Translations under genes and position numbers: made by a program
Notes under the pieces: model-generated
The model's database searches: none
Told to the model about the DNA's origin: nothing
What the model saw: the letters and a program-made list of their open reading frames with translations, nothing else
Source: a virus
Taxonomy: Duplodnaviria; Heunggongvirae; Uroviricota; Caudoviricetes
Strand: one strand, 5' to 3'
Virus record (IMG/VR): IMGVR_UViG_2687453466_000005
DNA length: 14,169 bases
Shown: positions 5,609 through 7,375 of the stretch, piece after piece
Position numbering within the stretch: the stretch's first letter is position 1
Layout: every line of letters begins with the position of its first letter

Positions 5609-6193
5609 TTACTCCGGATATTTAAAAATTACGTAGGTATGCGACGGGCAGAGTTTGTTAAGCACACACTCGACAACGGTGTCACCCCAGATACGCAGTG
5701 CGGAATCACAGGGATCGCCACATGTCATCCAGGTGGAGTTGGTGGTGGCTGGCATGTTGACCTGCCAGTAATACCGCCATTCCGGCGCATTCACCGCGTC
5801 AGTACAGGCCGATGAGCAGGTGAAAGTGCTTTTGTCGTATCGCGTGATGGTGGCATCTGGTCTGCCCAGGGCAGCAAGCTGTGCAAGATAAAAATCCTCG
5901 TTGATGCCGCCCGCCAGGTTAACCTTCGCATCCAGCCGTTGCTGACGCTGGCGAAGGGTCTGCGTTCCCGCCGGAATACATTCATCCGGCAGACCGCACA
6001 GACGCTCCCAGCGGTTTATCAGTTCAGTGGTGGTGCGCGGATCCAGCTCCCGCATCAGGGCATCCGCACGCTGATGAACACGGGTTAATGACGGTGCCGC
6101 ACCGGCAATCGCCGGATCGCTGGCTGACCACACCGGACCGGGCGGCAACAGTGCCGATAACAGGCGGATGTAATCATCGTTTGTCACGTCCAT
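5609..6193 (-). CDS. ymfQ: Phage tail protein YmfQ (DUF2313, Mu gp48-like)
   Basis: 194-aa ORF with ATG start, tightly packed between jayE and stfP in the leftward late-gene block. Confidence 0.7.
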
Positions 6194-6966
6194 GAAATCG
6201 TCCCCAGTACCGCCAGTTCGTTTTTCGCAATGGAGATATTGTCCACCGGTGCAAGCAACTGATGGCTGTATTCCCCGTTCGCACCGGAAATCGCCTCACT
6301 GATACGCGATACCTTGAGTTCTCCCTGCGGATAACCATCACGCAGCAGGAACGAACGCAACTCCGCGGTAATGGCAGCCCGTATTTCTGGTGTGTCCGGC
6401 GTCACGCGGATATGAAAATCCACCGTATGTGCCACCGGCCTGAACACATACAAATCAGAGCCTGCCACCGGGGCCAGTGGCCCGATATGTTGTCTTGCCG
6501 CCGTTTCCGTTGATTCTTCCGGAATGGGATTAATCAGGTCACTGCTGGCAATCATCACACCGACAGTTCCCGTTCCCATCAAGTGACGGTATGTCCATGC
6601 GCGGGTAATGCCGGGCACTTCTTTAGCCCAGACGACATAGTCCCCGTCAGCCCCGCCCTGCGGCGTCCAGTAATACCGCTCAATGACGCGGGCGCGCCAC
6701 GTTTCCAGCTCTTCAGTATCAAATCCGCCTGTCAGGGTGTCAGCCACACCGGAAGACGGCAGACCATTCACCGGCGTGACCAGGATTAATGCCGTACCGT
6801 CGTCAGCGTTACCGACCGCACCTGCACTTGAGCAGGCGATCGGCACGCGCAGGACACCACCGGAGCTGGTTGCATCGTCAGTTGTCGTGTACTGCACCAG
6901 GTCATCGCGCTGAATAACACTCCCGGCGGTCACCTTCAGGCCATCGCTGACACCTTCCCAGCGCAT
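6184..6966 (-). pseudogene. jayE: Baseplate J-like protein fragment JayE (N-terminally truncated remnant)
   Basis: ORF-track 276-aa frame begins with TTG at 7014; the first ATG is at 6966 (260 aa); its 5' end overlaps the portal-fragment frame, so the N-terminus is not a credible native start. Confidence 0.5.
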
Positions 6967-7375
6967 ATACCACACAGCCGGGATCGACGGGCAGCAGTTC
7001 AGCCACTTCGCCAAATGCTTTCACTTTGTAGGCGTAAAAGTTTCCCCTCAGGCACAGACAGGTGACCACCAGCTCCCAGAACTCCTGCGGCGTCATATAG
7101 CCATTGGGATGCGTGGAGATCAGTTTATGCAGACGTTCGCCGGTGGCTCTCTGCTTCAGGCTGCCGTTCAGGTGATACAGATTGCAGGGCAACATCCCGA
7201 CCGACTCTGCCAGCACTCTGACGCAGGAAAAAACCGCCGTCAGTCGCATAGCCCGCTGACTGCTGATCTGCTTTCCGGTATAGGTGTCATACGACAGCCC
7301 GATGGCATCCGCCAGCTCTGCTGGCGTGGTCACCGGTGCGTCACTTTTTCGTTGAAATAATCCCGAAAAGAACAC
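6902..7375 (-). pseudogene. beeE: Portal protein N-terminal fragment BeeE
   Basis: 157-aa frame starting with GTG; sequence ...TPQEFWELVVTCLCLRGNFYAYKVKAFGEVAELLPVDPGCVV... matches the N-terminal region of HK97-type portals, then ends where the jayE frame takes over. Confidence 0.6.

Follow-up and report, generated by a model that had tools for sequence, protein, structure and literature searches.

The portal and baseplate-J fragments at positions 6184 to 7375 of the window, the 14,169-nucleotide stretch of DNA analysed here, are best explained as the scar of one microhomology-mediated deletion within an SfV/SfI-type temperate phage at icd, a reading to which we give a probability of about 95%. 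The ancestor would have been a phage of this type with an HK97-type head and a Mu-type contractile tail that was integrated at icd. A single deletion would then have brought portal codon 136 up against baseplate-J codon 91/92 at a shared GGTA, and approximately 12.7 kb (on the scale of phage SfI) would have been lost, with 16 or so genes from the protease to the gp46-like gene, including that for the tail terminator. The deletion probably arose by slipped-strand or end-joining-like illegitimate recombination at the 4 shared bp. The baseplate remnant would have been left without its own start and its first 91 codons, and both the portal remnant, beeE, and the baseplate remnant, jayE, would be pseudogenes; neither is likely to be functional. 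No evidence contradicting a single deletion was found in this analysis. On this explanation, beeE and jayE flank one and the same deletion, and their significance beyond housekeeping is slight.

The e14 prophage and its annotated remnants

The window was identified as the e14 defective prophage of E. coli K-12 by its sequence identity and by its gene order between lit/intE and the icd' fragment/mcrA. Positions 5301 to 13229 (7,929 bp, which include the portal/baseplate junction) aligned to the MG1655 record with 100% identity. A megablast search of 5,426 complete E. coli genomes with positions 5500 to 8000 gave 100% identical, full-length matches in K-12 strains, for example MG1655 and BW25113. 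The genes of e14 in the RefSeq annotation of MG1655 begin with lit, intE, xisE, ymfH-J, ymfK (cohE), ymfT (croE), and ymfL, which are followed by a DUF4222 gene, an HTH pseudogene, a terminase-large pseudogene, and ymfR, and then by the portal pseudogene, the baseplate-J pseudogene, ymfQ, the fibre and fibre-assembly genes, pinE, mcrA, and the icd' fragment. An analysis of the element is attributed to Mehta, Casjens and Krishnaswamy (BMC Microbiol 2004;4:4).

The portal/baseplate-J scar in e14 is real but ordinary. We consider it already known and annotated because RefSeq marks both genes as incomplete, because beeE and jayE are established pseudogene names, and because e14 has long been described in the literature as a defective lambdoid prophage. 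The RefSeq label of the portal remnant is 'phage portal protein, incomplete, missing C-terminus' and that of the baseplate remnant is 'baseplate J/gp47 family protein, incomplete, missing N-terminus'; both entries are pseudogenes. The names beeE and jayE are given to the two remnants in the K-12 gene list of a 2024 paper, and full-text searches for these names returned gene lists only. What is added here is the position of the junction at the level of single bases, the size of the deletion, and the comparison with an e14 allele that decayed independently, and nothing else.

Table 1. Positions in the window of the two remnants, their junction, and neighbouring features
Feature	Positions	Strand	Extent or basis
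ymfQ, intact Mu gp48-like baseplate gene	5609..6193	-	PF10076 Phage_Mu_Gp48, E 1.3e-26; phrog_203
jayE, C-terminal fragment of Mu gp47 / baseplate-J gene	6184..6971	-	residues 92-352 of 352; BLASTP, PF04865, phrog_6, RefSeq
Out-of-frame read-through tail of portal ORF	6902..6967	-	21 codons and stop; baseplate-J DNA in wrong frame
Deletion junction, 4-bp microhomology	6968..6971	.	TACC on + strand, GGTA on coding strand; shared by both parents
beeE, N-terminal fragment of HK97-type portal gene	6968..7375	-	codons 1-136 of 413; BLASTP, PF04860, phrog_12, RefSeq
Upstream extension of jayE ORF to TTG	6972..7014	-	out-of-frame portal DNA, LAKWLNCCPSIPAV; DNA 100% portal-side
ymfR, intact 60-aa membrane protein gene	7375..7557	-	phrog_502 membrane protein, E 2.5e-28
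aaaE, C-terminal fragment of large terminase	7569..8705	-	TerL_nuclease and TerL_ATPase positions 118-174/178 only
oweE, N-terminal HTH fragment of replication-type protein	8703..8936	-	HTH_36, residues 23-70 of fusion ORF

The portal and baseplate-J remnants and their junction

The portal ORF appears in the ORF listing as 157 aa with a GTG start (6902 to 7375, minus strand), and all of these codons, approximately 157, had been taken as portal sequence in an earlier, sequence-only reading of this DNA. We found that the ORF does carry an N-terminal piece of a portal gene but that only 136 of its 157 codons belong to it, the last 21 being baseplate-J DNA. When beeE was compared by BLASTP to the intact 413-aa portal protein of a prophage in strain EC21Z-014, residues 1 to 136 aligned, 134 of them identical, and the sequences diverged immediately after, with e14 reading ...GCVV-YALG past residue 136 and the intact portal ...GCVV-PKLN. 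Baseplate DNA in the wrong frame therefore accounts for the other 21 codons. The translation of the ORF ends with ...GCVV followed by YALGRCQRWPEGDRRECYSAR, which represents these last 21 codons, and then the stop. The intact phage, too, encodes portal and baseplate J in different frames, and the frame difference of the remnants was taken straight from the window rather than argued from a deleted length that does not divide by 3.

Membership of beeE in the portal family was supported by a significant match of the 157-aa ORF to Phage_portal PF04860 (E 2.7e-22, 79.8 bits against a cut-off of 39.1 bits), which covered profile positions 2 to 92 of 321 only, and by a match to the portal family phrog_12 of PHROGs (E 1.2e-37). 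beeE does not contain the full-length portal domain, whose wing, stem, clip, and crown a dodecameric portal requires. The start of the gene is preserved as the authentic GTG at 7375, which overlaps the ymfR stop by 1 nt (TAGTG) as in the intact relatives.

The baseplate ORF (6184 to 7014, minus strand) is listed as 276 aa from a TTG start and overlaps the portal ORF at 6902 to 7014 in a different frame. It had been noted from the sequence alone that the jayE frame begins inside the beeE frame, on a TTG, with its first ATG at 6966 within the overlap, and the ORF listing and the coordinates agree with this in full. The coding part of jayE runs from 6969 to 6187 on the minus strand, in a frame that differs from that of the portal, and its stop codon is at 6186-6184. 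Compared to the intact 352-aa baseplate-J protein of the EC21Z-014 prophage by BLASTP, JayE was identical in alignment from Tyr92 to the C-terminus. The 276-aa ORF matched Baseplate_J PF04865 at positions 23 to 255 of 255 (E 1.6e-45), a significant match that places it in the Baseplate J / Mu gp47 / P2 gpJ family, and the best-matching PHROGs family was phrog_6, baseplate wedge (E 2.5e-63). A complete baseplate-J coding sequence with its own start and N-terminal region is not there, since residues 1 to 91 of 352 are absent. The first in-frame ATG is codon 17 of the ORF (6966-6964), equivalent to Met93 in the full-length baseplate-J protein. The TTG is followed by 14 codons of out-of-frame portal DNA, which do not form a real start region. 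Profile searches with both translations, which had been proposed as a check, thus gave partial matches to PF04860 and PF04865 with which PHROGs agreed, and by Pfam, PHROGs, and BLASTP neither ORF was a full-length protein of another family.

The junction was placed by three-way alignment of e14 with the two corresponding regions, one in the portal gene and one in the baseplate-J gene, of the EC21Z-014 prophage and likewise of phage SfI. Portal sequence continues to ...GGCTGTGTGGTA, and baseplate-J sequence follows from GGTATATGCGCTGG.... The same limits were seen by BLAST in other genomes, in which baseplate-side matches end at window position 6971 and portal-side matches begin at 6968. Flank homology stops at exactly these positions in both SfI and the EC21Z-014 prophage, as does that of the portal flank in a natural e14 allele from the icd site, which is how the suggested alignment to intact relatives came out. 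No extra bases, insertion sequence (IS) end, or recombinase site was found at the joint, where the flanks abut directly.

Microhomology at a joint is the usual signature of an illegitimate, microhomology-mediated deletion. The chance of at least 4 bp of microhomology at a random junction is approximately 0.015 by the formula (k+1)(1/4)^k(3/4)^2. Each flank is 96 to 99% identical over approximately 1.7 kb to separate, distant places in intact phages, and the junction is therefore far beyond chance. Both features of such a deletion scar were found here, namely flanks that are colinear and in the same orientation in one intact relative and bases that are shared at the junction. The remnants lie in different frames, so that the portal ORF continues through 21 nonsense codons of baseplate DNA before it stops. 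The sequence-only reading had also held that no capsid, protease, scaffold, or most tail genes lie between the two fragments and that a deletion removed the head module. The first of these statements follows from the joining of the pieces at a 4-bp overlap, and the second is upheld by the colinear intact relatives, in which the lost interval also takes in almost the whole tail shaft and baseplate.

The genes on either side of the remnants are intact. ymfQ lies directly downstream of jayE and overlaps its end by 10 nt, an arrangement that is the same in the EC21Z-014 prophage and in SfI. ymfR is found between TerL and the portal gene in all relatives examined, with its stop overlapping the portal start; its family, phrog_502, is filed as 'moron' in PHROGs. 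The antisense ORFs at 6262-6513, 6583-6789, 6683-6913, 7109-7360, and 7336-7572 and the small ORF at 6174-6341 gave no significant Pfam match, and no known RNA families were found in the whole window.

Distribution of the junction and other lesions of the element

A 401-bp probe centred on the junction was compared to the 5,426 complete E. coli genomes, and the junction was counted if at least 80% of the probe was covered. It was present in 284 of these genomes. Eleven of the carriers were sampled at even steps, and all 11 were 100% identical. Most of those sampled are named K-12 or are standard laboratory strains (MG1655, DH5alpha, J53, XL10-Gold, DSM 498, and others). Approximately 1,300 further genomes matched the two halves of the probe separately, with one half per place and a median of two places per genome, which is the undeleted state. 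By this survey the portal/baseplate-J junction is restricted to K-12-type genomes. We also considered that the junction might be an artefact of assembly or sequencing, as the window has peculiarities of its own in other places (two deletions of 1 nt and one of 241 bp). All of these private differences lie outside positions 5301 to 13229, however, and the occurrence of the junction in 284 independently assembled genomes, with identity in every one sampled, leads us to give an artefact no credence.

The private differences are as follows. In mcrA (1928-2760, minus strand), 1 nt is deleted from a run of C at approximately 2238, changing GGAGCCCTCGG to GGAGCCTCGG and giving two ORFs, 2215-2760 and 1928-2182; McrA would lose its C-terminal part through this change. 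The deletion was in none of the 331 complete genomes that matched this stretch among the 5,426 searched, the best identity being 99.0%, and it represents either a true allele private to this DNA or an error in sequencing the homopolymer. The earlier statement that the element kept its defence cargo is accordingly only partly right for this window, in which mcrA carries the 1-nt frameshift. At 13229/13230, 241 bp of the K-12 records (MG1655 locus 14231-14471) are missing, comprising the 3' end of intE and 43 bp of spacer, and intE is cut to a 313-aa ORF (12300-13241) versus 375 aa. This deletion was in none of the best matches listed among the complete genomes, all of which match in two pieces; if it is genuine, excision of this e14 copy should not be possible. 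Another 1-nt deletion relative to MG1655 is located at approximately 1019, in the AT-rich spacer upstream of iraM. The Pin-invertible fibre segment (3483-5321) has the opposite orientation to that in the MG1655 record CP032667.1, and the 21-bp stretches at 3483-3503 and 5301-5321, which match in both alignments, are the inverted-repeat crossover sites of this segment.

A second deletion is present at 8703-8705. The homology of aaaE to the intact 1,734-bp TerL gene stops at 8705, aaaE being its C-terminal two thirds, and in the ORF at 7569 to 8936 (455 aa) the HTH part of oweE is fused in frame to this C-terminal part of TerL. Three-way alignment revealed a 3-bp ACC microhomology at this second junction. 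Comparison to a related prophage puts the loss at 9,295 bp, which took away the C-terminus of the replication gene, dam, rusA, kilA-N, Q, the holin, endolysin, spanin, and HNH genes, TerS, and the N-terminus of TerL. Either of the two deletions alone would block particle production, and together they explain why e14 can excise but not make particles. The earlier proposal that loss of the head module helps to explain the defect was thus supported, with the qualification that this loss is not the sole lesion.

The arrangement left by the second deletion also bears on whether the remnants might be alive, that is, whether the 157-aa portal stub or a 260-aa JayE starting at the ATG at 6966 is expressed and kept for a function. 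A candidate function would be that of a dominant-negative decoy against related superinfecting phages, and another would be a part in a remaining sub-assembly of the baseplate or fibres together with YmfQ, Stf, and Tfa. The genuine portal start and its coupling to ymfR are preserved, JayE retains almost all of the Pfam Baseplate_J domain with an intact ymfQ downstream, and the second deletion places these genes downstream of ymfL of the early operon and of the oweE-aaaE fusion, on the same strand, which would make SOS-induced read-through conceivable. However, the junction is confined to one laboratory lineage without sequence variation, so there is no sign of selection on the remnants. No convincing Shine-Dalgarno sequence was seen by eye before the ATG at 6966, RefSeq treats both genes as pseudogenes, and another lineage, that of strain PS1Thumoskin9, lost the baseplate-J region altogether via an IS3-associated deletion. 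With these observations, we regard a retained function as exceedingly unlikely. A specific form of it is the decoy-subunit defence, in which the portal stub or JayE from Met93, once SOS induced, may poison the assembly of SfV/HK97-type superinfecting phages. The genes ymfR-beeE'-'jayE-ymfQ-stf now lie downstream of an SOS-inducible early operon on the same strand, and the stub or the JayE fragment could therefore be made on induction, yet we would place hardly any confidence in such a defence.

Intact and independently decayed relatives

Phage SfI carries both flanks of the junction. Window positions 6968-8705 correspond to SfI 2876-1139 (96.9% identity) and window positions 5294-6971 to SfI 17243-15565 (96.4%). 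The two copies of GGTA that form the breakpoints, where portal-side homology ends (2876) and baseplate-J homology begins (15565), are 12,692 bp apart in SfI. The interval between them first contains the rest of the portal gene and the genes for the prohead protease, major capsid protein, and head-tail connector and closure proteins, then those for the tail completion and terminator proteins, sheath, tube, tail assembly protein, and tape measure, and last those for the DNA-circulation protein and the baseplate hub, the gpV-like and gp46-like genes, and the first 91 baseplate-J codons. SfI is an isolated phage whose myovirus morphology was shown in the SfI paper, in which its close relatedness to e14-type prophages was also noted. 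The SfV-like prophage of strain EC21Z-014 is likewise colinear, with 98.9% identity in the portal flank and 96.8% in the baseplate flank. Its breakpoints, at 35624 and 21472, are 14,155 bp apart, and the interval includes an IS5 remnant, so that the deleted length depends on the comparator, being 12,692 bp by SfI and 14,155 bp by the EC21Z-014 prophage.

A third relative, a naturally occurring e14-type prophage, occupies the same site as e14. In PS1Thumoskin9 (NZ_CP180607.1, 873000-922000), a prophage is located between icd and the icd' fragment-iraM-ycgX. Like e14 of K-12, it has intE/xisE (92% identity), ymfL, TerL-ymfR-portal (96.5%), pinE, and mcrA. Unlike e14 of K-12, it has the full 942-bp HTH/replication gene, dam, rusA, Q, the lysis genes, TerS, the full 1,734-bp TerL gene, the full 1,242-bp portal gene, and the protease, capsid, and connector genes. 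It lacks the tail genes, including baseplate J; the connectors are followed by an IS3 and then by tfa, stf, pinE, and mcrA, which points to an independent IS3-associated deletion. The locus holds three IS3 copies, one of them at the point of the missing tail. Beside icd, in the place taken by lit in K-12, this allele has a hypothetical gene and one associated with HEPN/Toprim. These IS3 and cargo features were noted at locus positions 400-3300 and 29269-30800. The points at which this prophage ceases to match the window are exactly 6968 and 8703-8705, and therefore both K-12 junctions are lineage-specific deletions of a once complete element. The comparison shows that the e14-type prophage at icd decayed independently, and holds different cargo, in PS1Thumoskin9 and in K-12. 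The e14 scar is a textbook example of prophage domestication by successive illegitimate deletions, the other icd lineage having decayed by an IS3-associated route.

The same relatives bear on the alternative that two elements were joined by illegitimate recombination, one a lambdoid/HK97-type prophage that supplied the terminase and portal genes and the other a prophage with a Mu-type tail that supplied baseplate J, ymfQ, and the fibres. Modules have clearly been exchanged within the group. SfV itself has a different portal allele, and the e14 portal-side sequence also occurs in ST64B and phiP27 and, at 98% identity, in a prophage that lacks baseplate J and whose non-contractile tail is of the lambda type (gpJ, tape measure, gpL). 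In SfI, as in the EC21Z-014 prophage, however, the two flanks occur together in a single genome, colinear with e14 in both order and orientation and at 96 to 99% identity, and the e14 allele at icd in PS1Thumoskin9 has the same TerL-ymfR-portal block together with pinE and mcrA. With these three comparators colinear, a single deletion is the parsimonious route; we dropped an origin from two elements as the main reading for this reason and consider it very unlikely. The alleles of the head and tail modules are mosaic among the relatives, and the exact ancestor of e14 is therefore not reconstructable.

The closest known phages to e14 are the serotype-converting phages SfI, SfV, SfII, and SfIV of Shigella flexneri. 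In these phages, which have an HK97-type head, a Mu-type contractile tail, and a lambdoid early region, the flanks are colinear with those of e14 at 96 to 97% DNA identity, and the order is the same, with TerL-ymfR-portal on one side and baseplate J-gp48-fibre on the other. e14 does not have the complete head, tail, lysis, and replication modules of a functional SfV/SfI-type temperate myovirus. The phages of the SfI group are complete and make particles, whereas in e14 the 12.7 kb from portal codon 136 to baseplate-J codon 92 is absent. The SfI-group phages integrate at thrW and carry gtr genes, whereas e14 integrates at icd and carries pin, mcrA, and lit instead.
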